Below the pieces are notes generated by a model. That model searched no databases and was not told where the DNA came from. It saw nothing but the letters and a program-made list of their open reading frames with translations. From Candidatus Saccharimonadota bacterium (GTDB lineage Archaea > Nanohalarchaeota > Nanosalinia > Nanosalinales > Nanosalinaceae): a stretch of DNA of 32,000 nucleotides. The position numbers and the translations under genes are program-made. Numbering within the stretch: position 1 is the stretch's first letter; each line of letters begins with the position of its first letter. The stretch spans positions 1,014,239 to 1,046,238 of the forward strand of contig NZ_CP180230.1 in NCBI RefSeq assembly GCF_047555085.1, given 5' to 3'. Shown in pieces: positions 1 to 25,180 of this stretch.

Positions 1-143
1 GTTACAGCACTGAAGAAAAAAGCAGTGTAGAAGAGGAAGACATCGATCTTGTAGTCGAGAAGACAGGTGCTTCAAGGGAAGAAGCAGAGCAGGCTCTTGA
101 AGAAAACGACGACGTTGCAGGCGCAGTAATGAGCCTCAACTAG
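1..143 (+). CDS. nac: nascent polypeptide-associated complex (NAC) protein, C-terminal fragment (5' end outside window)
   Basis: Frame 3 reads ...EEDIDLVVEKTGASREEAEQALEENDDVAGAVMSLN* and ends at TAG 141-143. This is the UBA-like C-terminal tail typical of archaeal NAC. Confidence 0.7.
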   Translation, partial: YSTEEKSSVEEEDIDLVVEKTGASREEAEQALEENDDVAGAVMSLN

Positions 144-163
144 TCACCCATCACAGATCCAAA

Positions 164-182
164 TTCTTTTCTTTTCAAAAAT
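164..182. terminator. candidate bidirectional oligo-T terminator between convergent nac and secD
   Basis: There are T4 runs at 167-170 and 172-175 on the + strand. A5 at 177-181 gives T5 on the - strand. The element lies in the 52-nt spacer between two convergent stop codons. Archaeal terminators are oligo-T tracts. Confidence 0.3.
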
Positions 183-195
183 ATTCTGAAGGCCT

Positions 196-2756: not shown

Positions 2757-2881
2757 TAAACGAAATTTTCTCCTGTAAACATTTTAAACTCACCGGAGAT
2801 TTTGAGGCCTCTGAAGAAAAATCTCGGCAAATTATTTTTCCGATGGACTAAAAAATGTGAAGACTAATTTAGCGAATAAGT

Positions 2882-5545
2882 ATGAGTCTGGAGCGATACA
2901 AGGAAAAAGTAAAGGATAATTTTTCAAGAGAAGGCCTCAAAAATAACTGGGCGTTTCTAGCCGTTGCAGCAGTTTTCGGAGTCGCTCTATGGCTCAGATA
3001 TCTTCCTGAACAGGGAATGCAGAATCTTCAGGCCCTGGATCCATACATGATCTTCAGGATGTCCCAGCATCTGGCATACGAAGGAGCTATGCCTGTAGCA
3101 GACTTTATGAGGTACTTCCCTTACAGCGCTCCAACTTACCTACTTAATATAGGAGATATCGTCTTCCCTGCTATACTTTACTGGATGGGGCCTTCGATGA
3201 TTTTCGAGAACTATCTTGAGTGGGCGCAGTTCTATCCTGCTCTTATGGGTGCTCTATCTACTGTTGTAATGTACTTTTTCGGTAAAGAAGTTGCAAACAA
3301 GCGTGTAGGAATTTTCTCAGCCTTTTTCCTAGCTGTAATCCCTGGCGTGATGCGTCGTTCATCCGCAGGATTCTTCGAGAAAGAGCCTATCGGGACGTTC
3401 TTCATGATGCTGACACTGCTCTTCTTCGCAAGAGCATGGAAGCGTGAAAGCTACATTTCGGGAATACTTTCAGGCCTCTCACTTGCATTCTTCACAATCT
3501 CCTGGGGAGGATCCCGGATGCTATGGCTGCTTCTTCCTCTCGTAGTCGGCTCCCTGATATTCATAGACGAGGAAGTCCACGAACTGATCGTTGCTTACAC
3601 GCCGACAGTGCTTGTAGGAGGCGGAGTGGCAGCAGCACTCAACTACAATCGTTACTGGATCACAGGAACACTTTTCGTCGCAAACATCGGCCTCTTGGGC
3701 CTGCTGTGGAGCAGATACCTGATCGAGGAACTTGATCTCGTCAAGGAAAAGAATCTGAAGTACTACGTTCCAACAGTCTCAATAACAGGCCTCATCTTTG
3801 TACTGCTTTCACCACTCTACTCCAACTTCATCGCCTCCAAACTGATGAGCATTATTAACATGGTGACTCAGACGACAGGAGGAGATGTCATCGGAGGAAC
3901 AGTCGCAGAAAACACAGCTCCAGGCCTCTCAAATCTTATAACAAGCCTTGGAGCAGAGACAGCTGGCAGCATCCATCCTGTTCTCGGAACTTTGGCCAGC
4001 ATAGTAGGTTCATGGCCTATGATGATGCTGGGAATAGGATTCATGGGCTCAACAGTTGCTTTCATGCTTCTAAAGAAATACGGCCTTGTAGAAAGCGAGG
4101 TAAGCGACAAGATCTACTTTGCAGGCTTTGAAACAGTTTTCCTATCCTGGATGCTTCTTGTAACAGGCTTCTTTGAGCAACTGCTGATCTTCAGCGCTCT
4201 AGCCGCATTAACAGTTATCGGAATGTTCATAGCGTTCACAAAGTACCTCGACGACGACTACACGTTCAAGCTTGTGACAATGGTGACCGGAACAGGCCTC
4301 GTGCTTGAGATACTGATGCTTTTCTCCGGTGCACAGATAGCGTACACCGTCATCCCTGCAACAGCTCTCGTGCTGGCAGGCCTTGTAGCACTTTACTACA
4401 ACGACAGGCTTGGAAGCAGAGAAATCGAGATGGAGTGGATAATCGTGCTCCCTCTTGCATGGGTGATCACAAATCTGCTGGGATCAGTTGCGAAAAGCAG
4501 GATAATCTTCCTTTCAACCTTTGCAGTGGCATTCGCAGCAGGATACGGCCTCGCCAAGATTATCGGAGGCCTCGAAAACATGGATCTCAACGAAGTGTTC
4601 GAGTTCGAGAACACTGAAAGACTTAAGTACGCTGCAATAGCGATCATACTAATTTTAACTGTTGCAGTGAACTTTTCAGCAGGATTTATCAACGTTCAGA
4701 GTGTTAGCGGATCCCCTAACCAGGCCTGGGATCAGAGCCTGAACTACATGGATGAACAGACTCCTGACGGATCAGTAGTCATGTCCTGGTGGGATTACGG
4801 ATACCATTTCCAGACAATCGGGAGAACTGCCTCTGTAGCGGACGGAGGAAACGCTGGATACTACTCGAACGAAGTTAGAGCAACGAACATGCCTCTGGCT
4901 GATTTCCTGACTTCCGATGATCCTATGAATACTCCAGGCCTTGACAGTTTCCTGGAGCAACATTCCGTGGATTACATACTGCTCGATAATACAATGATCG
5001 GGAAGTACAGTGCAGTGAGCACAATTTCAAACGGAGCAGCCAATCTCCCTAACGAGTCCACAGGAGATCCTAGCTCAATGCTTACACTGTCCACTTCAGC
5101 AAACATACAGGACTCCATAAGCCAGAGCGGAAACACGACAACAGTAACATTCACAAGCTCTAGAGGCCTGCAGATCTATGCACCAGTACAGATCTCCAAC
5201 AACAGCATCTCTCTATCAGATGAACAGGCCCCGACACTACAACAAACGACAGGCAGAGGAACAGTCAGACAGCCTATTGACTGCATACTTACAGAAAACG
5301 GAAAGATAGAGTTCGATGTCGACACCCAGATCCCTTACTGTCTCGCAGAGGATCCTTACTTCAATCTGGAAAGAGGATTCCAGACACGACTACAGGCCCA
5401 GTCAGTGCTTGTACCGAAGGAGATCTCGGACTCCCAGCTTGTAGAGCTTTACATCCAGGATGGAGAACAGCTTGACTACGTTGAAAAAGTAGAAGAGGCC
5501 TCTAACGACTACGTCAAGATGTGGAAAGTGACTAAGACAGAATGA
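2882..5545 (+). CDS. aglB: dolichyl-phosphooligosaccharide-protein glycotransferase, STT3/AglB family
   Basis: 887 aa with about 13 N-terminal TM helices. The catalytic WWDYG motif is encoded at 4787-4801. A DK/MI-type segment LLDNTMIGKY follows downstream, then a soluble C-terminal domain. Confidence 0.9.
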   Translation: MSLERYKEKVKDNFSREGLKNNWAFLAVAAVFGVALWLRYLPEQGMQNLQALDPYMIFRMSQHLAYEGAMPVADFMRYFPYSAPTYLLNIGDIVFPAILYWMGPSMIFENYLEWAQFYPALMGALSTVVMYFFGKEVANKRVGIFSAFFLAVIPGVMRRSSAGFFEKEPIGTFFMMLTLLFFARAWKRESYISGILSGLSLAFFTISWGGSRMLWLLLPLVVGSLIFIDEEVHELIVAYTPTVLVGGGVAAALNYNRYWITGTLFVANIGLLGLLWSRYLIEELDLVKEKNLKYYVPTVSITGLIFVLLSPLYSNFIASKLMSIINMVTQTTGGDVIGGTVAENTAPGLSNLITSLGAETAGSIHPVLGTLASIVGSWPMMMLGIGFMGSTVAFMLLKKYGLVESEVSDKIYFAGFETVFLSWMLLVTGFFEQLLIFSALAALTVIGMFIAFTKYLDDDYTFKLVTMVTGTGLVLEILMLFSGAQIAYTVIPATALVLAGLVALYYNDRLGSREIEMEWIIVLPLAWVITNLLGSVAKSRIIFLSTFAVAFAAGYGLAKIIGGLENMDLNEVFEFENTERLKYAAIAIILILTVAVNFSAGFINVQSVSGSPNQAWDQSLNYMDEQTPDGSVVMSWWDYGYHFQTIGRTASVADGGNAGYYSNEVRATNMPLADFLTSDDPMNTPGLDSFLEQHSVDYILLDNTMIGKYSAVSTISNGAANLPNESTGDPSSMLTLSTSANIQDSISQSGNTTTVTFTSSRGLQIYAPVQISNNSISLSDEQAPTLQQTTGRGTVRQPIDCILTENGKIEFDVDTQIPYCLAEDPYFNLERGFQTRLQAQSVLVPKEISDSQLVELYIQDGEQLDYVEKVEEASNDYVKMWKVTKTE

Positions 5546-8071: not shown

Positions 8072-9265
8072 TCAGTACTTTTCTACTGCCTCAGATACCG
8101 TGTTTGAGAGTTTTGTCGGATGATCAAACGAGGGATAATCATGTTCAGATGCAAGTTCATGTGCATCAGTACCTTCTACCGGAAGAGGTATCACCGTATC
8201 AGGATTTCTGATATAGTCCGAACTGCCGTTGCCGTGATGTAGCACGTTACGAATATCATCTCCGAAAACCTCGTTACGGGCCTTCATGTAGGCCTTGACT
8301 CCTTTCAGCTTGCCGGAATCAGGATGCCAGTACTCGAATCCTCCATCGGAATGAGACTCGAATCCCCAGTCCGGATTCGCGGATTCTACAGCAGCCTTCA
8401 TTCTTGACTGAAGATAGCTCTCATCCACATCAATATCAGCACGATCCCTGTAGAAAACAATATCTCCTTCATCATCTCTCTCAAATCGGAAGCCTTTGAA
8501 CTGTTCTAGCTCCCGGAAAACCTCTGTCATAAATGCATAGGCCTCTCTAGAATCATCCACTCTTATGGCCCCTTTATCATCAGGATTCTCAGGGCCTCCA
8601 GTTATCTCAACATCATTTACGCTTCTATCATAGGCCTCATCATACTGGAAGCTTTCAAGGCCTTCAAAGTGTTCGCTGTATATATCCTCCGTTGTCTTTC
8701 CCTCATTGACGAATGTAGGATCGTCTCTCGTGCTTCCACGAGAATGATCTGTCGTTCCTTCTGCCTCTACTCTTGTAACTCCTACTCCCCAGGAGAGATT
8801 GTTCTGGAAGTTTCCTTTCCATCCTTCATCCGCAAGAACGCCGTAAATATTCTCCTGAATATCCATGAAGTCGTCCCTGGAGTACTCTACATCAGGGAAG
8901 AAATCCTCGGTATGGAAAACATCTCCGTTTATCTCAAATACCGTACCACGGCCTCCAATAAGATCAATGTTTTTCAGTGCCGGAGCCTCACTCGCCCATT
9001 CGTCCCTCAACTTTCTCTGGTACGGAACAGGCTTCCCGGAATTGAAAGCGACTCTAACACTATCTAGATTCATGAGGCCTTCTATAGCATCGAATATGTG
9101 CCTGTCATAGACTTCTGTAGTCGCTCCTCCATGTTTCAATGTGTCATCGATGTCGAGAGTTACAGCTACTTCTCCTTCATCTTCAAGCATCGAATCTATC
9201 TGGCGAGCTGCCTCCTCATCCAGAGCATCAGGATCAGGATTCTCAGATACTGTTTTCACTGACAC
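8072..9265 (-). CDS. HAD-superfamily (type IIB, Cof/SPP-like) phosphatase-like protein with a very large acidic cap region
   Basis: 397 aa. Motif I is DIDDT, motif II FNSGKP, motif III lysine in SGKLKGVKAYM, and motif IV is degenerate (HHGNGSSD). The start is GTG at 9265. The function is not determinable from sequence alone. Confidence 0.45.
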   Translation of the reverse strand: MSVKTVSENPDPDALDEEAARQIDSMLEDEGEVAVTLDIDDTLKHGGATTEVYDRHIFDAIEGLMNLDSVRVAFNSGKPVPYQRKLRDEWASEAPALKNIDLIGGRGTVFEINGDVFHTEDFFPDVEYSRDDFMDIQENIYGVLADEGWKGNFQNNLSWGVGVTRVEAEGTTDHSRGSTRDDPTFVNEGKTTEDIYSEHFEGLESFQYDEAYDRSVNDVEITGGPENPDDKGAIRVDDSREAYAFMTEVFRELEQFKGFRFERDDEGDIVFYRDRADIDVDESYLQSRMKAAVESANPDWGFESHSDGGFEYWHPDSGKLKGVKAYMKARNEVFGDDIRNVLHHGNGSSDYIRNPDTVIPLPVEGTDAHELASEHDYPSFDHPTKLSNTVSEAVEKY

Positions 9266-9351: not shown

Positions 9352-10095
9352 CTAGTCAAGATCCTTCCATCTTCCGCCGTAGATGTATCCGGAAAGTTCT
9401 CCGTTATCGGCAAGTTTCTCGAATACCTCTTCCAGGGAATTTTCATCAAGTCTGTCGAAAATATCCGGATCAAAAATGTATCTGCCTGCATTGATAAGGC
9501 GTGAGAAAACTTCGCCTTCAGGCTTTTCCTCGAACCCCAGAATCTTTCTGCCTTTCAACTTGGCTACACCGTAACCAGATGGATCTTCAACACTTGTCAG
9601 GGCCATTGTCGATATCGAATCCTCATCCCTGTGAATCTCTACCATCTCCCTGATATCGACATCAGCAATAACGTGTCCGTTGACAGTTACGAAAAGGCCT
9701 GAAATCTCATCAGAAATATTTTCAAGCGCTACAGCCGTTCCTTTAGGCTCGTCCTCGGAAACATACTCGAGTTCCATTCCCTCGAAACGTGAGCCCAGTT
9801 CATCCATCAACTCATCAACATTTTGGCCTGCCAGGAGAAAAACACGTGAAATACCCTGTTCAGATAGATTCTCAAGAACATGCGAAATCACAGGCCTTCC
9901 CCTGTACTCATTCATAGCCTTGTTCTCAGGATCACCGCACAGAACTACAGCCGTGTCAAGGCCTCGTCCCTCAAGATACTCAGTTAAAATTTCCTCAACT
10001 TGCTGAGAACGATTCACGGAATTCTCTTCAGCTTCAGAATCAATTCTTTCAACCAGCTTCTCTTCCAGAGTCAGGGAGACACGCTTCTTCGGCAT
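9352..10095 (-). CDS. ribbon-helix-helix (CopG-like) domain fused to a sugar-1-phosphate nucleotidyltransferase-like domain lacking the G-x-G-T-R loop
   Basis: 247 aa. The N-terminal KKRVSLTLEEKLVERIDSEAEENSVNRSQQVEEILTEYLE shows an RHH pattern. The remainder aligns by eye to the NTP_transferase fold (KGTAVAL, EDPSGYG, GFEEKP, INAGRYIF). The signature LAGGxGTRLxPLT is replaced by LCGD-PENKAM. Confidence 0.7.
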   Translation of the reverse strand: MPKKRVSLTLEEKLVERIDSEAEENSVNRSQQVEEILTEYLEGRGLDTAVVLCGDPENKAMNEYRGRPVISHVLENLSEQGISRVFLLAGQNVDELMDELGSRFEGMELEYVSEDEPKGTAVALENISDEISGLFVTVNGHVIADVDIREMVEIHRDEDSISTMALTSVEDPSGYGVAKLKGRKILGFEEKPEGEVFSRLINAGRYIFDPDIFDRLDENSLEEVFEKLADNGELSGYIYGGRWKDLD

Positions 10096-12200: not shown

Positions 12201-12992
12201 ATGATCGATGGAGAAAAAATCGCGGACAACATACTGGAACAGCTGGAGAAAACAGATGAAAGTCCGCACCTGAAGATCGTACTTGTCGGAGACAACGAGG
12301 CCTCTAAAACTTTCGTGGAGGAAAAGATGGAGGCTGCTGAAAGAATCGATTTCAAGGCCTCACTGGAAAAATTCGATGAAAAAATTTCTGAAGAAAAAAT
12401 ACTTGAGAAAATCCAGGAACTTAACTCAGATGAGGAAGTCGATGGCGTACTCGTTCAGCTGCCTCTTCCAGATCATATCGACGAAGATAGAGTATTCGAA
12501 ACTCTGGAGCCAAGAAAAGACGTTGATGGATTGACACCGGAAAATATCGGGAAAACTCTGCGTGGAAATCCTTTCACAGTTCCTGGTGCTGTAGAGGCCG
12601 TCGAAAAAATTCTGGAAGATAGAGTAAATTTTGAAGGCCTTGAAGTCACCGTGATCAACAACTCAAATCTTATCGGTAGGCCTCTATCGATGCGTTTAAC
12701 GGATAGAGGAGCGACAGTAACACTGTGTAACGAACATACAGAAGAACTGGAAAAATACACGAGAGATGCTGATGTCGTTGTGACTGCTACAGGTATGAGA
12801 GGCCTCCTGAAGCCTGAAATGGTGATGGAGGATTCTATCGTGATCGATGCTGGCTACAGCCTTGGAAAAGGTGACGTCGAGGACAAGAAAGGTATGGATG
12901 AGAAAACTGTTTTCTGTGGCGTCCCTGGCGGTGTAGGGCCTGTTACAGTCGCTGTGACTATGAAGAATCTTCTGAAATGTTACAGGGAATGA
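12201..12992 (+). CDS. folD: bifunctional methylenetetrahydrofolate dehydrogenase / methenyltetrahydrofolate cyclohydrolase
   Basis: Motifs VGDNEASKTFV, DGVLVQLPLP, DVDGLTPENIG, NSNLIGRPLSMRL and PGGVGPVTVAVTM are present. I moved the start to ATG 12201, which is preceded by GGAGG at 12187-12191. The ORF-track start at 12087 would overlap the upstream gene. Confidence 0.85.
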   Translation: MIDGEKIADNILEQLEKTDESPHLKIVLVGDNEASKTFVEEKMEAAERIDFKASLEKFDEKISEEKILEKIQELNSDEEVDGVLVQLPLPDHIDEDRVFETLEPRKDVDGLTPENIGKTLRGNPFTVPGAVEAVEKILEDRVNFEGLEVTVINNSNLIGRPLSMRLTDRGATVTLCNEHTEELEKYTRDADVVVTATGMRGLLKPEMVMEDSIVIDAGYSLGKGDVEDKKGMDEKTVFCGVPGGVGPVTVAVTMKNLLKCYRE

Positions 12993-13663
12993 TCTACATC
13001 TTTTTCTGGTGTGATGTCAAGATTGAGGAAGAATCTTTCGCCATCATCCTCAAACCATGCCAGGCCGTCACTCGTGTATGAGAGTGCTCTGAGAAGATCT
13101 ATGAACTCTCCGACTTTCATCTCTTTTTCAGTATCGATTCTAGAGGCCTCATCTAGCTCCCTGCGGAAATGCGTGGTGCCGTCTTCAGGACTTTGATCGA
13201 CTGTCTCGGGGCCTTCCTTGATCCGCTCCCAGTTTTCCACGAAGATATCGGCCTGGGCTTTCATCAGTCTCTGGCGAAGCGATCTTGAATCATCGTCAGG
13301 CCTTTTCCTGATTTTCATCCTGTCGATTATCGGGCCTTCATCGATCTCCTCGTTCATGTAATGGACTGATACACCGGCCGGCGTACCATCGATAATCGGC
13401 CAGATATACGGATGCGAGCCACGATTGTACGGAAGAAAAGAAGGATGAAGATTCACGACACCTTTCTCCGGGACTTCGATTATCTCCTTCGGAACTTTGT
13501 GCTCGAAACCTGAAGAGATCACGATATCAGGCCTCAGCTCTTCAATTAATGATAACTGTTCTTCCTCCGTCAGAAGTGCGAGAACATCTACATCCTCCCG
13601 ATGATTCAGCCACTCGTAGACTTCTTCACCGGCCTCGTTCAATCCCAGGAAAACAGCTTCCAT
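12980..13663 (-). CDS. formyltransferase-domain protein (PurN / sugar N-formyltransferase-like)
   Basis: The Formyl_trans_N signature is present: VNLHPSFLPYNRGSHPYIWPIIDG...GVSVHYMNEEIDEGPII. I set the start to ATG 13663; the track start at 13684 is TTG. Its 3' end overlaps folD by 13 nt. Confidence 0.75.
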   Translation of the reverse strand: MEAVFLGLNEAGEEVYEWLNHREDVDVLALLTEEEQLSLIEELRPDIVISSGFEHKVPKEIIEVPEKGVVNLHPSFLPYNRGSHPYIWPIIDGTPAGVSVHYMNEEIDEGPIIDRMKIRKRPDDDSRSLRQRLMKAQADIFVENWERIKEGPETVDQSPEDGTTHFRRELDEASRIDTEKEMKVGEFIDLLRALSYTSDGLAWFEDDGERFFLNLDITPEKDVDHSL

Positions 13664-13672
13664 AGAAAATTT

Positions 13673-13684
13673 TTGAGGCCTCAA
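13673..13684. repeat. perfect 12-bp palindrome TTGAGGCCTCAA in the FkbM-formyltransferase spacer
   Basis: Read directly from the sequence. It is centred on an AGGCCT copy, 10-21 nt upstream of ATG 13663 on the minus strand. Confidence 0.6.
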
Positions 13685-13708
13685 GATTCAATTAAGTAAC
13701 GGCTGATC

Positions 13709-14563
13709 TCAGAAATCTCTTTTCCAGATATAATCCTGTCCGCTTTCAGAGACAAACTCCTCTCTGCCTACCTCCTTTCCTTCAAAATCCTGGACAAGGC
13801 CTTGACTGTCAAGTATATCGAAAATTTCAGCTAGCTCGCTTTCTGACATCTTGGATGGATGTAACTCCAGAAAAATCCCGCCTATACTGTCAAGGAAATC
13901 CTGGAGACCTTTTATCACGCCGTATTCTGCTCCCTCGATATCTATCTTCAGCCAGTCAATCTCGCCGTGACTCCTGATAATCTCCGAGGCCTCTTTTACA
14001 TCGACTTCAAAGACTTCAGATACTTTATCCGCACCTCTGAGAGATGAAGCACCGGTATTCCAGTCGTTGTGCTCGAGTTCTACAGTCCCTCCAGAATCCG
14101 ATACAGCGGACTCGAAAAGATCAACGTTTCCTAGCTCATTCTCGCTAACAGTATCCTCCAGCATGGAAAAATTTACCGGATTAGGCTCATATGCAAAAAC
14201 TTTGCCGTCCTCTCCTACAGCCTTTCTCAGTATCAAAGTCGTTGAACCGATATGAGCTCCTATATCGACTGCTTTATCTCCTTCCTCTACTTTATCAAGT
14301 ATAGCATCCCTCAACTCTTTTTCGTGGAAAGTTGAACGACAGATATTTTCACCTACGTACTCACCCGGATCTACAAGAAGCTCGAATCCTTCAAAATCTA
14401 CCCATCGCTTATCGTAGAAAAACTGTCTCGAACTGTAGTAAAGGCCTACAACAGACTCTCCGACAGCTCCTGAATCCGCAAGCCTGGAGCCTAAAACTTC
14501 TCCAAGCTCTACAGCGTCAGCCTTCAAACTATTGAAAACGCCCTTACCCAGCTCCATGAACAT
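13709..14563 (-). CDS. FkbM-family SAM-dependent methyltransferase
   Basis: 284 aa with a DIGAHIGSTTL SAM-binding motif and the FkbM-type WLKIDIEGAEYGV. Confidence 0.75.
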   Translation of the reverse strand: MFMELGKGVFNSLKADAVELGEVLGSRLADSGAVGESVVGLYYSSRQFFYDKRWVDFEGFELLVDPGEYVGENICRSTFHEKELRDAILDKVEEGDKAVDIGAHIGSTTLILRKAVGEDGKVFAYEPNPVNFSMLEDTVSENELGNVDLFESAVSDSGGTVELEHNDWNTGASSLRGADKVSEVFEVDVKEASEIIRSHGEIDWLKIDIEGAEYGVIKGLQDFLDSIGGIFLELHPSKMSESELAEIFDILDSQGLVQDFEGKEVGREEFVSESGQDYIWKRDF

Positions 14564-14629
14564 AATTAGTACAAAAGCACTGATAAATGTGAAAAATGGA
14601 AGAGGCCCTGTTACAGGCCTCCGGATTTT

Positions 14630-15547
14630 CTACATGTATCCAAGCTCACGCAGACGATTCATGATCTCTTTATCATCCTTATTCTGCGCTCTTCCAGCTC
14701 TTTCTTTCGTGTTCTCCACGTCCTGAAGCCATGCAGGGATCTCATCAGACTTGTCAGTCGAAACTTCACTTCCTAGTGAGCGGAATCCTGCCCAATACTT
14801 CGGACTTATCGGTACGTCGTCTTTTGAGAGGCCTTCCGGCAGATCTGATTCGTCCTCCGGATACTCTTCAACGTCAACGCCTGTGATATCAGGTACCATG
14901 TGGAACCATGAGACGTCCCATACATCTCTCTCATCCAGCTGAAGTATCGGATGCACTCTCAAGTGATCCGGATCGCTTCTAGGACTGTAAAAGTCTTCGT
15001 CGCCTCTTGATTCGTGCTCATCCCATCTAACTCCGTTGATAACAAGCTCGATATTTTCCTCTTCAAGCAGCTCGTTCATCGGAACAGTCTTCAGAAGATG
15101 GTTCCCGGACTCGGTGTCCATCAGCCATGGAACTTCTTCAAGATCCTCATCGATCCTGGAGGCCTCTTCCTGATTCCTGTCGTTCAGCTCTGCGACAGGC
15201 ACCATATCTCCCGGCTGATCAGCTTTTTCGATCAAGTCATCATTCCTGGCGATCAATACATCGAATCCCCAGTCGCTAGCCAGACGCTCGACGTAATCTT
15301 CAAGCTCATCGAAGTGCTGGCCGTGATCCACAAACATGAAACGTGGCTTCTCGAATCCATGCTCCTCGCAGACTCTCTTTACGAGCCAAGCTGTCAAGGT
15401 CGAGTCCTTTCCTCCTGTAAATCCGATAACGGCGTTCTCCGAGCCATATTCTTCCAGGGCTCTTTTGACGACTTCCTCTCCTGCTCTGATTTTTGCCTTT
15501 ATAGGCGCATTCTCAATTTCTTCTCGTGTTACTGGTGCTTCTGGCAT
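14630..15547 (-). CDS. PAPS-reductase / CysD-like PP-loop ATP pyrophosphatase family protein
   Basis: It has the PP-loop GFTGGKDS, GVRWDEHESRG, GFRSLGS (the usual Cys is absent) and a CysD-like tail ERAGRAQNKDDKEIMNRLRELGYM. There is no CysH-type ECG(L/I)H redox motif. I set the start to ATG 15547, which is preceded by AGGAG. The track start at 15571 is TTG. Confidence 0.75.
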   Translation of the reverse strand: MPEAPVTREEIENAPIKAKIRAGEEVVKRALEEYGSENAVIGFTGGKDSTLTAWLVKRVCEEHGFEKPRFMFVDHGQHFDELEDYVERLASDWGFDVLIARNDDLIEKADQPGDMVPVAELNDRNQEEASRIDEDLEEVPWLMDTESGNHLLKTVPMNELLEEENIELVINGVRWDEHESRGDEDFYSPRSDPDHLRVHPILQLDERDVWDVSWFHMVPDITGVDVEEYPEDESDLPEGLSKDDVPISPKYWAGFRSLGSEVSTDKSDEIPAWLQDVENTKERAGRAQNKDDKEIMNRLRELGYM

Positions 15548-15567
15548 AGTAAATCCAACTCCTAATA

Positions 15568-16353
15568 TCAATTATGTTCCGGATAATCGTAATCGTAATG
15601 ATTTAAGATAGCTTTTGCAACATCCTCCGGCTGATCAATCTCAAAATCAACGTTTTTCGTGATCAAAACTGCGTCCTCATGGTGATCTCCCTCTAACTTT
15701 CCGTGAGGAGTCTCTTCCGGCAATGTCTGTACCCTTCCCTCTCCGAACTCCGCGAATCCGTGGTCTGAAAGAACGATTAGTGGCTCATCGCTTTCAAAGT
15801 CGTAATACTCAAGTAGTTCTCCCAGAACTTCATCCATCTTCTTGTACCATTCCAAGATCAGTTCCTTGTCGTTCCAGTAGAAATGGGATACTCTATCGAG
15901 CTGCATGAAGACTACTGCGAAAAATTCCGGATCATCTTCAAGAACTTCCTTCGATTTTTTGATCAATTTTCCTCTGTCGGCCTCAAGCTCATCTAAATCA
16001 GATGAGACACCGAATCCCTCTGCCTCATACTCTGTATTGTAATTAATCGGTGGGATGACAGCTGGGATCTGCAGAATCTTTAAATCAACGTCGTCCATGA
16101 CCTCCCAAACAAAATCTCCATCGATATCCTCTCTCTTCTGAAGCTCATCACCTACGACGAAATCCTTGTGATTATGCTCATCCTGGCTGAGGCCTGTAAA
16201 AATAGATGTCCACAGAGGCGCACTCTTTGGCGTCTCCTCAACAGTCACAGTCTTGTAGTCACAGGCCTCCATCAATCTATCAAAATTCGGAAGCTCATCT
16301 CTATGAGGTTTAATCATATCCCAAGTCGCCGCGTCGATTCCGATTACTTTCAA
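15568..16353 (-). CDS. alkaline-phosphatase-superfamily protein, NPP/phosphodiesterase-like (short form, divergent)
   Basis: 261 aa. Metal-site and nucleophile pattern: VIGIDAATWD, KSAPLWTSIFTG, QLDRVSHFYW, VLSDHGF, GDHHED. No TM segment and no signal peptide. Confidence 0.65.
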   Translation of the reverse strand: MKVIGIDAATWDMIKPHRDELPNFDRLMEACDYKTVTVEETPKSAPLWTSIFTGLSQDEHNHKDFVVGDELQKREDIDGDFVWEVMDDVDLKILQIPAVIPPINYNTEYEAEGFGVSSDLDELEADRGKLIKKSKEVLEDDPEFFAVVFMQLDRVSHFYWNDKELILEWYKKMDEVLGELLEYYDFESDEPLIVLSDHGFAEFGEGRVQTLPEETPHGKLEGDHHEDAVLITKNVDFEIDQPEDVAKAILNHYDYDYPEHN

Positions 16354-16359
16354 ATTAAA

Positions 16360-16557
16360 TCACCTGTCCAAATATCCAAGTTTCTCAAGTTTTTGCGCAA
16401 TTTCCTTGGCCTGTTCTTCTGAAAGTTCTTCCTCTTCTTTAGAATCCGATTCAGAAAGTTCCCTCAACTTGTCCTGGACAAATCTTGAAAGATTGATATG
16501 ATTCTCATCCACAAAATCTGCTAGATCATCCGGCAAGGAAATAGTCTTTCGCTCCAT
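16360..16557 (-). CDS. small ribbon-helix-helix (CopG/Arc-like) protein
   Basis: 65 aa from ATG 16557. MERKTISLPDDLADFVDENHINLSRFVQDKLRE fits the beta-strand/helix/helix RHH pattern, followed by an acidic tail ending LEKLGYLDR. It lies 6 nt upstream of the AlkP-like gene. Confidence 0.55.
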   Translation of the reverse strand: MERKTISLPDDLADFVDENHINLSRFVQDKLRELSESDSKEEEELSEEQAKEIAQKLEKLGYLDR

Positions 16558-16560
16558 CAA

Positions 16561-16580
16561 TATGCATAACTTATGCATAA
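16561..16580. promoter_or_regulatory. tandem TATGCATAA repeats (11-bp register), candidate RHH operator / promoter element
   Basis: TATGCATAA occurs at 16561-16569 and 16572-16580. Each copy contains the palindrome ATGCAT. The repeats lie immediately upstream of the RHH gene ATG (16557) in a 43-nt spacer. Confidence 0.3.
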
Positions 16581-16600
16581 TCATTGATAAATGTGTGGAA

Positions 16601-18339: not shown

Positions 18340-19740
18340 TTACATGTAGCCGAGATCCTTCAAGTTCTCTTTGATCTTTTCATCTTTTACATTCAAATCT
18401 TTCCCTTCCTCGTCCTCTTTCTGAGACGGCTCGCCCACCTTGCTTCTGATTGCCTCTGACGCAGAATCTGAAACAGCTTTATTTCCTCTGCACGGATTCT
18501 CCTCTCTTTCTCCATCCGAGTACTCTATCAGCTGTTCTCTCTCATTTACTGCCGATACACTGTATCTGGAATGCTTTTTCCGATCCTCATCAGTCAAGTC
18601 CAAGTCCCTGAATGCTGGAAAATTCTCTCCACCATAATCCTCAGAAATAGCATAATCCACAGGTTCAATAGTACTGGTGTCTCCATCTGCAAGGTCTATA
18701 ATATGATCTCTGAGCTGCCTCAACTCGACAGCTCCCTCAACATTTGCTTCAACTTCTTCAGGGAATACCTCGATGAGCGGGACATGTGTTACCTCTTCAT
18801 GTAGTCCTACGAGATGGTTCGGTCTCTTATGTGCATACAGGTACTCACCATGATCAGAAGTAAAGATAAATATCGTGTTAGGGTGTTTCCCCCTAATAGT
18901 TTTGTAAAGGTTCTCTAGACGGTAGTCAAGGTAGCTTATCGAGCCATCATACAGAGACTCCTTGATATCCATCATCTCCTCGTCCGGCTCCTTCCTGGAA
19001 TCAAGGTAAGGCTTCATATTCTCGTGATCTGCCTCAAAAATACTCTTGTACCTCAATTTTCTATCTAGGTACTTGTGAGAGTATGGAAACGGTGGCTTAA
19101 ACGGGGCGTGAGGCTCCGCATAGTTTAGAAACATGAAAAACGGCTCGTCATCCAAATCTTCCAAGTATTCAAATGCCTTCTCATTAGTTTTCTTAGCTCC
19201 AGAATCAATCCTCATCGAGGCCTTCTTCAATACGAAAAAACCAGCTTCAAATAGATCCCTGAAGTTGCCTCCCAGCAAGGCCTCTTTTCCGAGCTTCCAG
19301 TACTTCTCCAGCTTCGGGACATTGCGCATCTCCTTGGCCTTCTCAAAAATCGAGTTATCATCTAAGTCAACGCCCTCATTCATAAACTCATGTCTGTCAA
19401 AAAACGTGTCTACTCCTGTAGAAGACGAAAGATAACCTACATTGACTGCCGCCAAGTTAGTATATCCTTTTTCTTTCAAATCATCTTGTAAAACATTCAG
19501 GCCTTCAATATTCTTGTCAAGATCTGCCTTATGCTCCGAGAGATACTGGCCTGAAAACATTGATGCATGAGAGGACAAAGTCCAGTTCGCCTGACTGTAA
19601 GCATTCTCATACACCACATTCTCCTCAGCCAGTTCATCCAAGAACGGTGTTGTCTTCTTTTCATACCCGTAACACGAAAAATTCTGGGCACGGGCAGTAT
19701 CCATTACAACAAGGACAATATTATACCTCTCATCACTCAT
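18340..19740 (-). CDS. sulfatase-fold alkaline-phosphatase-superfamily protein with Thr nucleophile motif (long form 1)
   Basis: Motifs VVMDTARAQNFSCYGY, WTLSSHASMFSG, YAEPHAPF and FTSDHGE are present. It lacks the C/S-x-P-x-R formylglycine motif. The preferred start is ATG 19740 (MSDERYNIV...); the track start is 19779. Confidence 0.75.
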   Translation of the reverse strand: MSDERYNIVLVVMDTARAQNFSCYGYEKKTTPFLDELAEENVVYENAYSQANWTLSSHASMFSGQYLSEHKADLDKNIEGLNVLQDDLKEKGYTNLAAVNVGYLSSSTGVDTFFDRHEFMNEGVDLDDNSIFEKAKEMRNVPKLEKYWKLGKEALLGGNFRDLFEAGFFVLKKASMRIDSGAKKTNEKAFEYLEDLDDEPFFMFLNYAEPHAPFKPPFPYSHKYLDRKLRYKSIFEADHENMKPYLDSRKEPDEEMMDIKESLYDGSISYLDYRLENLYKTIRGKHPNTIFIFTSDHGEYLYAHKRPNHLVGLHEEVTHVPLIEVFPEEVEANVEGAVELRQLRDHIIDLADGDTSTIEPVDYAISEDYGGENFPAFRDLDLTDEDRKKHSRYSVSAVNEREQLIEYSDGEREENPCRGNKAVSDSASEAIRSKVGEPSQKEDEEGKDLNVKDEKIKENLKDLGYM

Positions 19741-19830: not shown

Positions 19831-20706
19831 ATGAAAACTATAGTAATAGCACTTGACGGACTGGACTATGAACTTGTAAAGGAATTCGAACTGGAAAACA
19901 TTATCCAGGAAGAGACAGGGGAAATCAACAACTACGAAGGCATAAATAAAATCAAGACTTCGGAGCTTTTTGCATCATTTATCACAGGAAAAACCTGGGA
20001 AGAACACGGAGTAACAGGCCTAGCAAAATGGTCCAATCATAGAATACAGAAATTTGAAGATTTAGTTGAAGGGATCTGGTTCTTTGATAAGTTCAGGGAG
20101 CTCAGACAGGCTGTATTCGAGACAGTAGGCCTCTTCAATGCCAGTCAGAGAAAATACACTAAAGAAGATCTCGAGGCAGAAACAGTATTCGAAGAAATTG
20201 AGAACTCAAGAGCAATGTTCGTGCCAAGTTATAATCCCAGCATGACGTGGATTATAAGAGCCGGCACAGCACCTCTAAAATTTGGATTTACTTCCGAAGA
20301 TGTAGTGGAGTACTGGGATAGTAGAGAATACGAACACAGGAAAAGGGAGCTTTTCAGCGAACTGGAAAACGAATTTGTTCCAGCACGTGACCTCCTCATG
20401 TGTCACTTCCACAGGCCTGACATGCACCACCACATGTATGGCGACAAAAACCTCGGAAACTTCGATAAAGCAAAACTAAAAGAACTCTATAAAGAAACAG
20501 ATGACCTGGCTGGAAAGATTAAGAAAAAAGCCCTGGAAAAAGGATACGAAAGGATAATCTTCATGTCCGATCACGGCCTCCCTCTCGCAAAAGGACACAA
20601 CAAGAACGCTTTCTACTCATCCAACAAACCACTTTTCCCAGATAAAACACCACATATAACCGACTTCCATGACGCATTTGTTAAAGAATCAGCGACCAAC
20701 AAGTAA
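19831..20706 (+). CDS. alkaline-phosphatase-superfamily protein, NPP/phosphodiesterase-like (short form, paralog A)
   Basis: 291 aa with IALDGLDYELV, KTSELFASFITGKTWEEHGV, HFHRPDMHHH, IFMSDHGLP and GHNKNAFYSSNK. It is paralogous to 23591-24460 and 28371-29237. Confidence 0.7.
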   Translation: MKTIVIALDGLDYELVKEFELENIIQEETGEINNYEGINKIKTSELFASFITGKTWEEHGVTGLAKWSNHRIQKFEDLVEGIWFFDKFRELRQAVFETVGLFNASQRKYTKEDLEAETVFEEIENSRAMFVPSYNPSMTWIIRAGTAPLKFGFTSEDVVEYWDSREYEHRKRELFSELENEFVPARDLLMCHFHRPDMHHHMYGDKNLGNFDKAKLKELYKETDDLAGKIKKKALEKGYERIIFMSDHGLPLAKGHNKNAFYSSNKPLFPDKTPHITDFHDAFVKESATNK

Positions 20707-22253: not shown

Positions 22254-23594
22254 TCAGGTAAAAATCTTCAACTTGTCAATCATACTCTCAGCTTTTTCCT
22301 CTAATCCCTCAAAAACTTCCTCAGCCTCCTCTTCACGGAAATCCGAGTTAATCCTAATATTCTCTTCACTGTAGCCTCTGATAACTTTTTCACCATCCTT
22401 TTCTACAGAAACACTGTCCTTCGTAAAGTCATATATCATCTCGCCCTCCACAAATTTTGGATTATTGGCGATATCCCTGCCAGGATACTCGGTAATAGCA
22501 TACTCAACCTCATCTATAGGCTTCAACGTCCCGTCTGCAATATCAATAATATGATCATGTAGCTGTCTGGTCTCTACCTGATATTCTATGTTCTTATTCA
22601 CATCTTCAGGAAAATCCTCAATTAGGGGTACGCGAGTAACTTCATCGTGAAGACTACCGAAATGCTCAAAGTGATCATGCTCTCCGAATGCTTCTCCGTG
22701 ATCGGATGTTATGATGAACACTGTATTCGGATAATCCTCTTTAATACTATCATAGAGCTCCTTAATCTTCCCATCAAGATACCTCTGCTCGCCTTTGTAG
22801 AGATTTTTCATGGTCTCCAACTCCTCATGATTCACATCCACATCATTCCTGTAAAAATGCGGCGTATGACGCCTCACATACGGAGAGAAACTAGCAAGAG
22901 ATGTAAGCGATAGCCACTTCTTTTTATTATCTAAAAACTTATGGGAATAAGGAAAGGGTGGGCTATAAGGGTCATGCACCTCAAGATAGTTTATAAACAT
23001 ATAAAATGGGTTGTCAGATGCATTAGCATGATTTAAAGCAATCTCATTAGTTCTCTTCGCCCCACTATCATTTAGGAGTAAGACCTCTTTAGTAAGATAT
23101 TTGCCAAGGTTAAATATACCTCTGAAACCTTCCTCTCTGTAACAGGACTTTACTGCTGCACCAAATTTTCCAAAAATACCCTCAGCTTTTTCTATATCCT
23201 CCATCACCCCAATCTTGCTCATGTAATTCGAATTCACATAGTCATATCTGTCAAAATACTCATCAAAACCATACTGAGGCCAGAGAAATGGAACATTTAC
23301 AACACCTATCGTCTCATAACCTCTTTCTGAAAGATGAGAAGGAAACATATCCAAATTTCTCAAATCGTCTTCCGCTGTCATGACTCCATGATGATGTTGA
23401 TGTTTGCCTGTAAACATTGATGCATGTGAGGGCATAGTCCATACCGCCTGAGACACCGGCCTCTCGTACTTAACACCTCCTTCAGCCAGAGAGTCCAAGA
23501 AAGGACTTGTTTCGTCTTCACATCCATAGCAGGAGAGAGTATCTGCCCTGGCTGTATCCATAACAATATGAACTATATTCGGTTTTTCACTCAT
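22254..23594 (-). CDS. sulfatase-fold alkaline-phosphatase-superfamily protein with Thr nucleophile motif (long form 2)
   Basis: 446 aa with IVMDTARADTLSCYGC, WTMPSHASMFTG, YLEVHDPY and ITSDHGE. It is a paralog of 18340-19740. Its ATG overlaps the stop of the upstream gene (ATGA). Confidence 0.75.
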   Translation of the reverse strand: MSEKPNIVHIVMDTARADTLSCYGCEDETSPFLDSLAEGGVKYERPVSQAVWTMPSHASMFTGKHQHHHGVMTAEDDLRNLDMFPSHLSERGYETIGVVNVPFLWPQYGFDEYFDRYDYVNSNYMSKIGVMEDIEKAEGIFGKFGAAVKSCYREEGFRGIFNLGKYLTKEVLLLNDSGAKRTNEIALNHANASDNPFYMFINYLEVHDPYSPPFPYSHKFLDNKKKWLSLTSLASFSPYVRRHTPHFYRNDVDVNHEELETMKNLYKGEQRYLDGKIKELYDSIKEDYPNTVFIITSDHGEAFGEHDHFEHFGSLHDEVTRVPLIEDFPEDVNKNIEYQVETRQLHDHIIDIADGTLKPIDEVEYAITEYPGRDIANNPKFVEGEMIYDFTKDSVSVEKDGEKVIRGYSEENIRINSDFREEEAEEVFEGLEEKAESMIDKLKIFT

Positions 23595-24460
23595 TTTATC
23601 TTGTCCTCGTTATCTGTTAACTCCAGAATTTTATCATAAAAATCCGTGATATGCGGAGTCTCATCTCCAAACAGCTCTCTATTACATGAATAAAAAGCAT
23701 TCTTGTTATGTTCATGTGGACCTGATTTTTTCTCAGGACGACCATGATCCGACATGAAAATCACAGTCCACTCATCACCATACTCCTCAAGAATCTGCCC
23801 GGCAATATCATCAAGTCTTTCATATTCTTCTTCTAAATCTCCAAGACCTGTATCCTGAAACGCATCAGGGTCATGAAGATGAAGCATGATAAAATCCCAA
23901 AAATCCTTTGAAACATCAAAGAAAGCAGGCTGAGTAGCAGTCCCCTGGCGCAACCTTACTTCAGTATCATGTCTAGACTCTTCTACAAACCTTTCTTCTC
24001 CATAATATCTTACAACCGCATGAGGTAAAGCCACGAGCCAGTACATAGAAGGATTATAACTAGGAACATACAGCGGCAATGAAGCATCAATCTCTTCAAA
24101 AATAGTCTCTACCTGCAAATCATCTCTTATATAATTAGTATCCTCCAAGGACTTGCTTTGCTTAATTACATCTCTCAAAGTCCGAAATCCACGAACATGA
24201 CTGACCAAAAAATCAGGAATCAAGTGCTTCGAAATCTTATCTCTAAAAGTAAGCTTCTTCGAAAGGCCTTCAACGCCATGGTCTCTGTAAGTTTCACCTG
24301 TAATAAACGAAGCGAAAAGCTCACTAGTCATCCTATTCTTGATTCCAGTAGAATTATCTATATCCCCGAACTCCTCTTGTGGGATATTTTCAAGATCAAA
24401 CTCTTCTACCAGTTCTTTATCCATTCCATCAAAAGCCACAACTAGAACATTTTCCGTCAT
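23591..24460 (-). CDS. alkaline-phosphatase-superfamily protein, NPP/phosphodiesterase-like (short form, paralog B)
   Basis: 289 aa with VAFDGMDKELV, MTSELFASFITGETYRDHGV, HLHDPDAF, IFMSDHGRP and HEHNKNAFYSCNR. Confidence 0.7.
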   Translation of the reverse strand: MTENVLVVAFDGMDKELVEEFDLENIPQEEFGDIDNSTGIKNRMTSELFASFITGETYRDHGVEGLSKKLTFRDKISKHLIPDFLVSHVRGFRTLRDVIKQSKSLEDTNYIRDDLQVETIFEEIDASLPLYVPSYNPSMYWLVALPHAVVRYYGEERFVEESRHDTEVRLRQGTATQPAFFDVSKDFWDFIMLHLHDPDAFQDTGLGDLEEEYERLDDIAGQILEEYGDEWTVIFMSDHGRPEKKSGPHEHNKNAFYSCNRELFGDETPHITDFYDKILELTDNEDKIK

Positions 24461-25180
24461 TTATTTCCACACCGCTGTTATGACTTTAACATCTCTTTCC
24501 TGGATTTCTTCGTCTTCCTCAGCTTCCTCTATACTCTCAATCTCATATCCGAGTTCCAGTATTTTCTCTTTAACTTTTTCTGTTGGCGAATCAAAAACAC
24601 CATGAGTCTCCACTATCAATACTTCAGGCCGAATTTCAAGACTATCCAGTATTTTCAACTCAGCTCCTTCCACGTCAATTTCTAGAACATCACATTCGGG
24701 AAGATCCTCTACAGGCATAACTTCGGCGTTCATCTCTTCCCCGAACAGGTTCCCTTTCTCTCCTACAATTTTGTGATGAACTGAAATATCTTCTTTTTCG
24801 TTAAATCTCAGCGTCCTTCGAATCTTTTCGACCTGCTCACCACTTGCCTCATATACAGAAACATTTTCAGGTGAAGTTATCTCTGCCGCATGAACTGCAG
24901 AAACACCTAGGCCTCCACCTATAATTATGACTTCGTCTCCAGAAGATACATTTTTCTCAAGGGAATTCAAAATCCCTTTTTCGTAAGTCTCATTGTTCAG
25001 TTCTTTCAGATCTAGAGAGGGTTGGAAAAACCTTGCTGAAGGCACTTCTACACCATTATAAACTCCCTTTCTAAGAGGCATAACTTCTTCCAAAAAATTC
25101 TGGTAAACGAACCTCATACCTCTCTTCAATAATAGAGAAATTCCTCCTTCTTTCACGGCTTTCCGAACTTTATTTTTCAT
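24461..25180 (-). CDS. class I SAM-dependent methyltransferase-like protein (FkbM-like)
   Basis: It has a Rossmann motif VIIIGGGLGVSAVHAAE, an acidic VYEASGEQ segment and the FkbM-like VLEIDVEGAELKIL. The preferred start is ATG 25180; the track start at 25189 is GTG. Confidence 0.5.
   Translation of the reverse strand: MKNKVRKAVKEGGISLLLKRGMRFVYQNFLEEVMPLRKGVYNGVEVPSARFFQPSLDLKELNNETYEKGILNSLEKNVSSGDEVIIIGGGLGVSAVHAAEITSPENVSVYEASGEQVEKIRRTLRFNEKEDISVHHKIVGEKGNLFGEEMNAEVMPVEDLPECDVLEIDVEGAELKILDSLEIRPEVLIVETHGVFDSPTEKVKEKILELGYEIESIEEAEEDEEIQERDVKVITAVWK

Follow-up and report, generated by a model that had tools for sequence, protein, structure and literature searches.

Conserved linkage of a CysD-like protein and a small alkaline-phosphatase-fold enzyme points to a possible sulfate-activation unit in a nanohaloarchaeal N-glycosylation island

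We analysed a 32,000-nucleotide stretch of contig NZ_CP180230.1 (hereafter, the window) in which five closely spaced minus-strand genes encode a small ribbon-helix-helix (RHH)-like protein, a protein of the alkaline phosphatase (AlkP) fold that we call AlkP_A, a CysD-like PP-loop protein, an FkbM methyltransferase and a formyltransferase. The first three genes are a conserved core, and the last two are variable tailoring genes. In our preferred reading, to which we give about an even chance, the RHH-like/AlkP_A/CysD-like trio is one transcription unit that supplies activated sulfate for the sulfation of cell-surface or N-linked glycans. Gene order in distant relatives suggests, with a similarly balanced probability, that the trio is the GTPase-less form of a widespread and apparently undescribed operon of archaeal and Chloroflexota glycan clusters, in which small RHH-like protein(s), an anion transporter, CysD, a CysN/EF-1alpha-like GTPase and AlkP_A follow one another in that order. 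Four lines of evidence tie the AlkP fold to CysD: genes that are near-obligate neighbours across two domains of life, fusions that arose independently several times, a C-terminal tail in common, and the lack of an adenosine 5'-phosphosulfate (APS) kinase in the window and in the operons annotated.

A three-gene core within the five-gene chain

The five genes are laid out as follows (ORF, open reading frame; aa, amino acids).

16360..16557, minus strand: small RHH-like protein; ATG 16557 is the likely start (65 aa), and the ORF extends to 16584 (74 aa)
15568..16353, minus strand: AlkP_A, 261 aa, TTG start
14630..15547, minus strand: CysD-like PP-loop protein; ATG 15547 is the likely start (305 aa), and the ORF extends to 15571
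13709..14563, minus strand: FkbM methyltransferase, 284 aa
12980..13663, minus strand: formyltransferase; ATG 13663 is the likely start (227 aa), and the ORF extends to 13684 (234 aa)

When the likely starts are used, the intergenic gaps are 6, 20, 66 and 45 nt, and an AGGAG lies 12 nt ahead of ATG 15547 of the CysD-like gene. The common strand, these gaps, the AGGAG and the protein motifs quoted in an initial annotation of the window were all confirmed in the ORFs.

Synteny was examined around the PP-loop gene in 29 nanohaloarchaeal genome loci and 14 metagenome loci, with every ORF compared with the window proteins. The closest relatives of the PP-loop protein, at 87-94% identity, come from Candidatus Nanohaloarchaeota (Nanosalina/Nanohalobium-like). 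A backbone recurs across the loci, in the order flippase(-), RHH-like, AlkP_A, CysD-like, a variable stretch, epimerase(-), RHH-nucleotidyltransferase, epimerase, cupin, AglH(-) and AglB(-). The RHH-like, AlkP_A and CysD-like genes are found together in most of the approximately 40 nanohaloarchaeal loci, where their products are 64-86%, 66-93% and 74-97% identical to those of the window, respectively, and the RHH-like orthologues lie directly upstream of the AlkP_A or the CysD-like gene. All five genes together were found in none of the approximately 40 related loci. Among these, only L019 has an FkbM gene at this position; its product is 35% identical and it lies between AlkP_A and the CysD-like gene. 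The formyltransferase gene comes immediately after the CysD-like gene in about 8 loci; in others it is located elsewhere or was not found.

In several genomes, insertions of 0.7-6.7 kb split AlkP_A from the CysD-like gene. This gap is an insertion hot spot, seen in L027 (1240-8001), L040, L045, L046 and L006. In L008 (Candidatus Nanosalina sp. J07AB43), positions 21-3599 carry tandem AlkP_A/CysD-like fragments (21-356, 1821-2096 and 2048-2599) followed by an intact CysD-like gene; the fragments could be a duplication, pseudogenes or an assembly artefact.

The elements of the chain that bear on transcription are listed here.

16585..16595, minus strand: TATA-like 11-mer CACATTTATCA; the distance from its TTTATC to ATG 16557 of the RHH-like gene is 28 nt
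14601..14622, minus strand: terminator-like hairpin of 8 pairs, followed by TCCATTTTTC, directly after the stop codon of the CysD-like gene
14581..14591, minus strand: second copy of CACATTTATCA, 18-24 nt ahead of the FkbM start codons; a putative separate promoter

Because a hairpin with a T-run follows the CysD-like gene and CACATTTATCA is repeated before FkbM, the five-gene chain probably comprises at least two transcription units. The pattern fits a first unit of the RHH-like, AlkP_A and CysD-like genes and a second that starts with FkbM and perhaps includes the formyltransferase. The hairpin is a consensus match, one of 3 such sites in the region where 2.6 are expected. The exact 11-mer has 2 copies in the whole window, each just upstream of a start codon, a weak statistic given that 16 of 100 shuffles contained at least two matches with one mismatch allowed. 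A scan for sigma-70-type promoters was uninformative, the host being an archaeon.

The initial annotation treated the five genes as one operon and one modification module. Such a fixed five-gene operon, adding sulfate or phospho, methyl and formyl groups, would be consistent with the common strand and the short gaps, and all five products are plausible in glycan tailoring. However, we consider it very improbable: the quintet recurs in none of the related loci, FkbM is nearly unique to the source genome, the formyltransferase gene moves, and both the hairpin and the second copy of CACATTTATCA lie between the CysD-like gene and FkbM. The short gaps of the proposed operon thus stand, but a single transcription unit does not, and co-conservation of the five genes is contradicted by the approximately 40 loci. 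What does survive from the module is the pairing of sulfate-type and AlkP-fold proteins in a glycan context which, by the adjacency and fusions described below, is much more general than one genome. Surface-glycan diversity in symbiotic nanohaloarchaea would be expected to show just such a conserved core with strain-specific tailoring genes.

The PP-loop protein belongs to the CysD lineage

The PP-loop protein matches PAPS_reduct (PF01507, 2e-20). Profile and motif comparisons place it in the CysD lineage rather than with CysH, as a diverged CysD in which two insertions are present and the CC motif is missing. The motifs present are GGKDS, RWDEHESRG, FRSLG and the tail ERAGRAQNKD...LRELGYM; within FTGGKDST, residues G45, G46, K47, D48 and S49 are invariant in 23 homologues. 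ECGLH, the catalytic cysteine motif of CysH, is absent, and the single cysteine of the protein (C60) is not conserved among homologues. Its best NCBIfam family is CysD, and families of the CysH type score 24-44 bits against cut-offs of 154-254.

The relationship is clearest in a comparison with CysD from the distant operons described below. Aligned by hhalign, the window protein and operon-type CysD match with probability 100 and E 2e-41 (2.1e-41) at 36% identity; the 224 aligned columns extend from the PP-loop through the very end of the tail, ER(A/S)GRAQDKE...LRxLGYM. The two operon CysD proteins tested (L036 and L035) pass the NCBIfam CysD cut-off, with 341 and 256 bits against 195. A search of PDB sequences with the window protein was weak, CysD (1zun) being the best match at E 0.002, and the AlphaFold2 (AF2) model has a pLDDT of 88. 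The family match, the hhalign result and the missing ECGLH agree with the assignment to CysD rather than CysH made in the initial annotation. We propose that the activity of this CysD-like protein is that of a sulfate adenylyltransferase without an encoded GTPase partner.

Nanohaloarchaeal orthologues are 60-94% identical to the window protein, and orthologues of approximately 320 aa and 54% identity are found throughout Halobacteria. In L002 (Haloplanus halobius) and L003 (Halodesulfurarchaeum sp.), the 54%-identical orthologue keeps the LGYM tail, and no AlkP_A or small protein is encoded nearby. Sulfated glycans and glycolipids are hallmarks of halophilic archaea, and the halobacterial orthologue is a candidate for the sulfate-activating step of haloarchaeal glycan and lipid sulfation.

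AlkP_A is predicted to be a minimal NPP-like metalloenzyme

AlkP_A matches Phosphodiest (PF01663) at 4.7e-22, with 79.5 bits against a gathering score of 23. Residues D7, S44, D153, H157, D197, H198, D223, H224 and H225 are invariant in 20 homologues, and the protein appears to have a complete two-metal site with Ser44 as the candidate nucleophile. We take S44 to correspond to the threonine of nucleotide pyrophosphatases/phosphodiesterases (NPPs), from a by-eye match of TPKSAPLW with the NPP motif. The AF2 model of AlkP_A (pLDDT 86) has 2gsn (Xac NPP), 7n1s and ENPP1 as its top Foldseek matches (E approximately 3e-8, probability 1.0, TMq 0.52-0.64; TM approximately 0.53-0.6 for Xac NPP and ENPP1), while the AlkP_A alignment profile found nothing at E <= 0.01 among PDB sequences. 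As modelled, AlkP_A is a minimal NPP-like metalloenzyme of the AlkP fold; NPPs bind AMP-type ligands. With Xac NPP and ENPP1 it shares the Pfam family, the fold, the Ser/Thr nucleophile and the two-metal ligands. It differs from them in its low identity (18-20%), in being a cytoplasmic minimal core of 261 aa, and in its genetic tie to CysD(N); no such tie is known for NPPs.

AlkP_A and CysD are linked in archaea and Chloroflexota

Orthologues of AlkP_A with 39-51% identity occur in Aenigmatarchaeota, Altiarchaeales, another archaeon and Chloroflexota. A PAPS_reduct gene adjoins AlkP_A in all three distant contexts examined (3/3: a DPANN archaeon, Altiarchaeales and Chloroflexota), each of them a sugar or glycan cluster, and in Chloroflexota the gene order is two small ORFs, TauE, CysD, an EF-Tu/eEF1A-type GTPase and AlkP_A. 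A metagenome scan with the AlkP_A alignment yielded 66 distant loci. A CysD-type gene is adjacent to AlkP_A in 21 of the 22 that have enough flank. In 39 of the 53 with at least 300 bp of upstream sequence, the gene immediately upstream of AlkP_A encodes a CysN/EF-1alpha-like GTPase, and the two frequently overlap by 4 nt. TauE was found in 14 of the 66 loci, small ORFs in 24, sulfatase-like genes in 13 and AglB/STT3-like genes in 5; flippase genes sometimes follow. The operon GTPase scores 299 bits against a CysN cut-off of 336, and 372 against an EF-1alpha cut-off of 502. Operons without TauE may carry other transport components, namely an NMT1/SsuA-like ATP-binding cassette (ABC) binding protein in L055 (2152-4703) and a PstS-like protein (PBP_like_2) in L078 (415-3935). 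Given these replacements, sulfate is not certain as the transported anion in every lineage.

A second, GTPase-less operon type, consisting of a small ORF, AlkP_A and a CysD-like gene, is found in Altiarchaeales, where the CysD-like protein (L037) aligns with the window protein along its full length at 42% identity. By gene content, the nanohaloarchaeal trio belongs to this type; no CysN-type GTPase was found in the window or in the nanohaloarchaeal loci. The initial annotation had reported that the window encodes neither a CysN-type GTPase nor an APS kinase, and this holds for ORFs of at least 100 aa.

Fusions provide further evidence for the link. A library search with the PP-loop family returned 409 clusters, 38 of them below 1e-30, and the nearer members include proteins of approximately 510-820 aa, which Pfam resolves into an N-terminal Sulfatase or Phosphodiest domain and a C-terminal PAPS_reduct domain. 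In P0125 and P0134 the CysD-like domain is fused to the subtype of Sulfatase_A, a window protein described below; P0136 and P0202 are fusions of Phosphodiest and CysD-like domains, and P0124 has a small RHH-like domain at the N-terminus of a CysD-like relative. The fused sulfatase domains share a W-T-L-P-S-[HF] motif with Sulfatase_A and Sulfatase_B of the window. One archaeal fusion locus (L033) lies beside RNA polymerase genes. A bacterial one (L034) is part of a polysaccharide cluster, with Wzm/Wzt-like ABC genes ahead of it and epimerases, a methyltransferase and GT1-type glycosyltransferases (GT1s) behind it. Taken together, conserved adjacency across two domains of life and the fusions strongly support a functional link between the AlkP-fold protein and the PP-loop protein.

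The PAPS_reduct and AlkP-fold superfamilies also come together in defence systems that modify DNA, such as bacteriophage exclusion (BREX) type 4, with BrxP and PglZ, and the Dnd/Ssp systems, with DndC, and one weak SspD match was seen (2.6e-4, residues 48-108, the P-loop, only). A system of this kind is nevertheless highly improbable here, in agreement with the low rank that the initial annotation gave it. A PADLOC scan of eight proteins had no BrxP, PglZ or DndC match, and no BrxC, BrxL or DndA, B, D or E partners are present. Furthermore, the locus is core-conserved inside an aglB island, the PP-loop protein belongs with CysD and AlkP_A resembles NPP in fold, and in other lineages the two are accompanied by CysN-like GTPases, anion transporters and glycan genes.

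A shared C-terminal tail and sulfatase-like neighbours

The RHH call on the small protein of the trio comes from CcdA only (18-18.6 bits against a cut-off of 22.4), together with the sequence pattern. The protein has an acidic linker and ends in ...KLEKLGYLDR. Small ORFs of the distant operons show the same pattern of a beta-strand followed by two helices, and the same tail. The tail motif, (K/R)L(K/R)xLGY[LMF], is distributed as follows.

CysD-type proteins: 56/72
Small RHH-like proteins: 68/71
Sulfatase_A homologues: 91/120
AlkP_A orthologues: 0/102
Unrelated ORFs: 17/853

The shared tail and the fusions suggest a physical complex, in which the small RHH-like protein may be a subunit or a regulator. 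Within the window, the C-termini concerned are LRELGYM of the CysD-like protein (14630-14650), LEKLGYLDR of the RHH-like protein (16360-16385) and LKDLGYM of Sulfatase_A (18340-18360); such C-termini are also present in loci L035-L117.

Two sulfatase-like genes are encoded further along the minus strand.

18340..19740, minus strand: Sulfatase_A, soluble, PF00884 at 1e-37, WTLSSH with Thr at the nucleophile position, ...LKDLGYM tail
22254..23594, minus strand: Sulfatase_B, soluble, Thr-type WTMPSH, tail absent; the gene's start and the end of the AlkP-fold gene AlkP_C overlap

The formylglycine motif C/S-x-P-x-R is absent from both proteins and from all 120 Sulfatase_A homologues (0/120), 71 of which carry W-T-x-[PSAT]-S-H. 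Most of the homologues have threonine at the nucleophile position, which is typical of transferases of the AlkP fold, and Sulfatase_A is a candidate glycan sulfotransferase. A search with Sulfatase_A for named Agl31 homologues returned only generic 'sulfatase' names, from Halobacteria at approximately 31% identity.

A proposed route for sulfate and its alternatives

By homology, the CysD-like enzyme would adenylate sulfate, converting ATP and sulfate to APS and pyrophosphate (PPi). Adjacency, translational coupling and the fusions suggest that AlkP-fold enzymes would then use the APS where it is made. In one version, the sulfuryl group could be transferred to Ser44 of AlkP_A and from there to either a conserved acceptor or the variable sulfatase-like transferases of the Thr type; in another, AlkP_A might help to drive the unfavourable activation step. 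The product would be a sulfated N-glycan or another cell-surface glycan, the likely destination of the sulfate, and neither APS kinase nor 3'-phosphoadenosine 5'-phosphosulfate (PAPS) would be needed. We prefer the reading in which AlkP_A is itself a sulfuryl transferase to those in which it relays the group to the sulfatase-like enzymes or is a hydrolase that pulls or regulates the reaction. It is speculation that aEF1alpha stands in for the missing GTPase in the halophile version.

Sulfation is the best-supported chemistry because orthologous operons carry a CysD that passes its threshold, a CysN-like GTPase and TauE. Direct use of APS instead of PAPS is suggested by the lack of an APS kinase, none having been found in the window or among the annotated operons. 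The data as a whole lead to a testable hypothesis, that sulfotransfer is channelled and depends on APS, not on PAPS. More tentatively, and at less than an even chance, CysD-type and AlkP-fold proteins (AlkP_A and the Thr-type sulfatase-like proteins) may together form an unrecognised PAPS-free sulfation system with RHH-like subunits, an LGY docking tail and channelled APS. It would be widespread in DPANN, other archaea and Chloroflexota, and its halophile version would be the missing donor supply for the sulfation of archaeal glycans and glycolipids, including that by the sulfotransferases Agl30 and Agl31.

Several observations weigh against a sulfate-activating trio. The PP-loop protein scores below the CysD cut-offs (NF003587 and TIGR02039; 66.9 bits against 195 and 41.9 against 396.6), has two insertions and has lost the CC motif, and the window encodes no GTPase, sulfate transporter or APS kinase; therefore, its substrate could have changed. 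The fold search returns flavin adenine dinucleotide (FAD) synthase/flavin mononucleotide (FMN) adenylyltransferase (FMNAT), APS/PAPS reductases and CysD about equally, with TM approximately 0.5. The nearest structures to AlkP_A attack phosphorus, not sulfur, and such an attack on APS would merely hydrolyse it. The PstS-like transporter of L078 usually means phosphate. In L001 (Candidatus Nanohalobium constans) and L009 (strain M3_22), the RHH-like and CysD-like genes are present and AlkP_A was not found within the flanks (10 kb in the case of L001). The two halobacterial orthologues examined lie amid housekeeping genes, without AlkP or glycan genes nearby. Finally, the promoter and terminator evidence is at the level of consensus matches.

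The last but one of these points bears on the possibility that the CysD-like protein is a housekeeping enzyme (for cofactor or RNA modification, or a residual assimilatory step) whose position in the island is incidental. The halobacterial genes, with approximately 54% identity, lie beside ribosomal-protein, diphthamide-synthesis or chaperone genes, and conservation is very high in reduced genomes of approximately 1 Mb. We nonetheless give this possibility only a slight probability. The gene lies in the aglB island of the nanohaloarchaeal loci examined, and next to AlkP_A in most of them. The pairing is also found in Altiarchaeales at 42% identity (L037) and in fusions with AlkP-fold domains, the bacterial fusion being placed in an ABC-transporter-type polysaccharide cluster (L034).

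An unlikely alternative keeps the same sulfate-activation unit but has AlkP_A as a hydrolase of PPi, surplus APS or a nucleotide by-product, pulling or regulating CysD, while the sulfatase-like proteins alone transfer sulfate. The closest structures are nucleotide pyrophosphatases/phosphodiesterases that release AMP, and 39-51% identity across domains of life despite varying glycans fits a small universal substrate. Sulfatase-like genes often directly follow AlkP_A, and AlkP_A is without the LGY tail common to the other components. On the other hand, APS hydrolysis would be futile, and most cells have a general pyrophosphatase. The P0136 and P0202 fusions and the 4-nt overlaps with the GTPase gene suggest hand-over of a substrate rather than clean-up, and only 13 of the 66 operons have a sulfatase-like gene in the sequenced flank.

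The PP-loop enzyme might also adenylate something other than sulfate (another oxyanion, or a phosphate monoester of the kind used by FMN adenylyltransferase), with AlkP_A adding a phospho-group to the glycan in the manner of EptA/LtaS-type enzymes. The score of the window protein under the CysD cut-off, the FAD synthase and FMNAT among the top fold matches, NPP-type chemistry at phosphorus and the PstS-like ABC transporter of L078 are all in line with this. We regard it as improbable, however, as the operon relatives score above the CysD cut-off and are accompanied by a CysN-like GTPase and TauE, and the CysD-specific loop RWDEHESRG...FYSPR and the tail are retained. Haloferax volcanii, moreover, already has RibL for FAD synthesis (PMC8305020). 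FAD synthase (eukaryote-type FMNAT) was also considered as the main assignment of the PP-loop protein, since it appears among the matches of the PDB sequence and fold searches alike, and was rejected in view of RibL and of the sequence, operon relatives and tail, which point to CysD.

Comparison with known sulfation systems

The initial annotation described the transferases behind haloarchaeal glycan sulfation as poorly defined, a statement that is now outdated. Agl30 (VNG1056C) and Agl31 (VNG1057C), AlkP-fold proteins encoded in the aglB cluster of Halobacterium salinarum, sulfate its N-linked tetrasaccharide and, when expressed in Haloferax, also sulfate the Haloferax glycan (PMC11980604). 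Reported in 2025 on genetic evidence, they are the first archaeal N-glycan sulfotransferases, and the report names neither PAPS, a sulfate donor nor a CysD-like partner (PMC11980604). The window resembles this system: its island is of the same kind and encodes four small AlkP-fold proteins along with two sulfatase-like proteins that are soluble. It differs in that AlkP_A is a 261-aa NPP-like protein and not of the sulfatase type; the likeness drawn here is one of fold and gene context.

To CysD/CysN, the window PP-loop protein is related by the PP-loop, the RxDE..SR..E.(F/Y)SxR loop, FRSLG and the ERxGR...GY[FM] tail, but it departs from that system in its sub-cut-off score, its insertions, its missing CC motif and the lack of a GTPase partner within the window. 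Like NodP/NodQ, the CysDN paralogue for Nod-factor sulfation, it would be a dedicated copy in a glycoconjugate cluster, and one PP-loop relative is annotated 'nodulation protein' by its source. In contrast to both systems, the APS kinase (CysC, or the C-terminal domain of NodQ) is not seen in the window or the annotated operons, and an AlkP-fold enzyme is found where CysC would be. We found no described CysD plus AlkP module, sulfate donor for Agl30/Agl31 or nanohaloarchaeal sulfate activation in the open-access literature. Dedicated sulfate activation of the CysD/NodP type and AlkP-fold archaeal sulfotransferases are kinds already known; there is a real chance that the unit described here represents a new, APS-channelling sulfation system.

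FkbM and formyltransferase as tailoring genes

The FkbM protein matches PF05050 (1.7e-20, 74.3 bits against 22.7) and TIGR01444 (106.7 against 37.7), with a weak RfbT match. Its sequence and distribution fit a strain-variable glycan O-methyltransferase outside the conserved unit.

The formyltransferase matches Formyl_trans_N (1.2e-22, 80.9 bits against 26.1) and N_formyltrans_C (7e-10, 38.8 against 25.8). Its best NCBIfam family, dTDP-4-amino-4,6-dideoxyglucose formyltransferase, gives 106.1 bits, short of the cut-off of 238. The neighbouring gene on the opposite strand is FolD.

12201..12992, plus strand: FolD (methylene-tetrahydrofolate dehydrogenase/cyclohydrolase), PF00763 and PF02882

The two genes converge, and their 3' ends overlap by 13 nt (12980-12992). 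FolD lies beside the formyltransferase gene in at least 5 loci; the arrangement is convergent in L010, L026, L043 and L044, usually with an overlap of a few nt, and in L015 the genes are adjacent but divergent. We read the protein as a sugar N-formyltransferase because of its domain content and the recurring pairing with FolD, which is the likely supplier of N10-formyl-tetrahydrofolate. As in known enzymes of this class, such as the WlaRD/VioF type or dTDP-4-amino-4,6-dideoxyglucose formyltransferase, both domains are present (N_formyltrans_C being that of dimerisation), the NLHPS...D catalytic pattern can be recognised by eye and FolD is adjacent, but the window protein is below the equivalog cut-off. 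Together, the two genes would be consistent with a route to an N-formylated amino sugar. The formyltransferase requires an amino sugar as substrate, yet none of the window's ORFs was recognised as encoding a sugar aminotransferase.

The surrounding glycosylation island

A Pfam scan of all large ORFs underlies the gene inventory of the window, in which the following features were found in addition to those above.

Start of the island gene list, ahead of AglB/STT3: SecDF
2882-5545: AglB/STT3
Within the window: AglH-like gene of the GlcNAc-1-P transferase family
Within the window: cupin and two epimerase/dehydratases
9352-10095, minus strand: RHH-fused sugar-1-phosphate nucleotidyltransferase, with an N-terminal RHH domain (PF01402) above cut-off
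Within the window: GT2-type glycosyltransferase like dolichol phosphate mannose (DPM) synthase
Within the window: flippase, five GT1-type glycosyltransferases and a second FkbM (FkbM_B, 24461-25189)
19831-20706, 23591-24460 and 28371-29237: AlkP_B, AlkP_C and AlkP_D, three paralogous Phosphodiest-type proteins of approximately 290 aa
16601-18304, minus strand: Gly_rich_2 protein, 567 aa, probably secreted, hydrophobic segment at its N-terminus; its gene is the next one upstream of that for the RHH-like protein

By its gene content, the 32-kb window is an aglB-anchored N-glycosylation island of a nanohaloarchaeon; its proteins are acidic, and its G+C content is approximately 45%. The glycosylation island of the initial annotation is thus supported by AglB/STT3, the AglH-like gene, the flippase, the glycosyltransferases, the sugar-nucleotide genes and six AlkP-fold genes inside 32 kb (AlkP_A, the two Thr-type sulfatase-like genes, and AlkP_B, C and D). 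The remaining ORFs of at least 100 aa are glycan, Sec or folate genes and one ORF of 397 aa (8072-9265, minus strand), which lies in the conserved sugar-nucleotide part and has zero Pfam matches.

FkbM_B, AlkP_C and Sulfatase_B form a cassette in which the genes touch or overlap. The RHH-nucleotidyltransferase is present in most nanohaloarchaeal loci at 43-66% identity, and its RHH region, as predicted, would be a DNA-binding domain on a metabolic enzyme. The Gly_rich_2 protein may be a surface protein and a target of glycosylation; L045 encodes a copy of it in the same position, with 69% identity.

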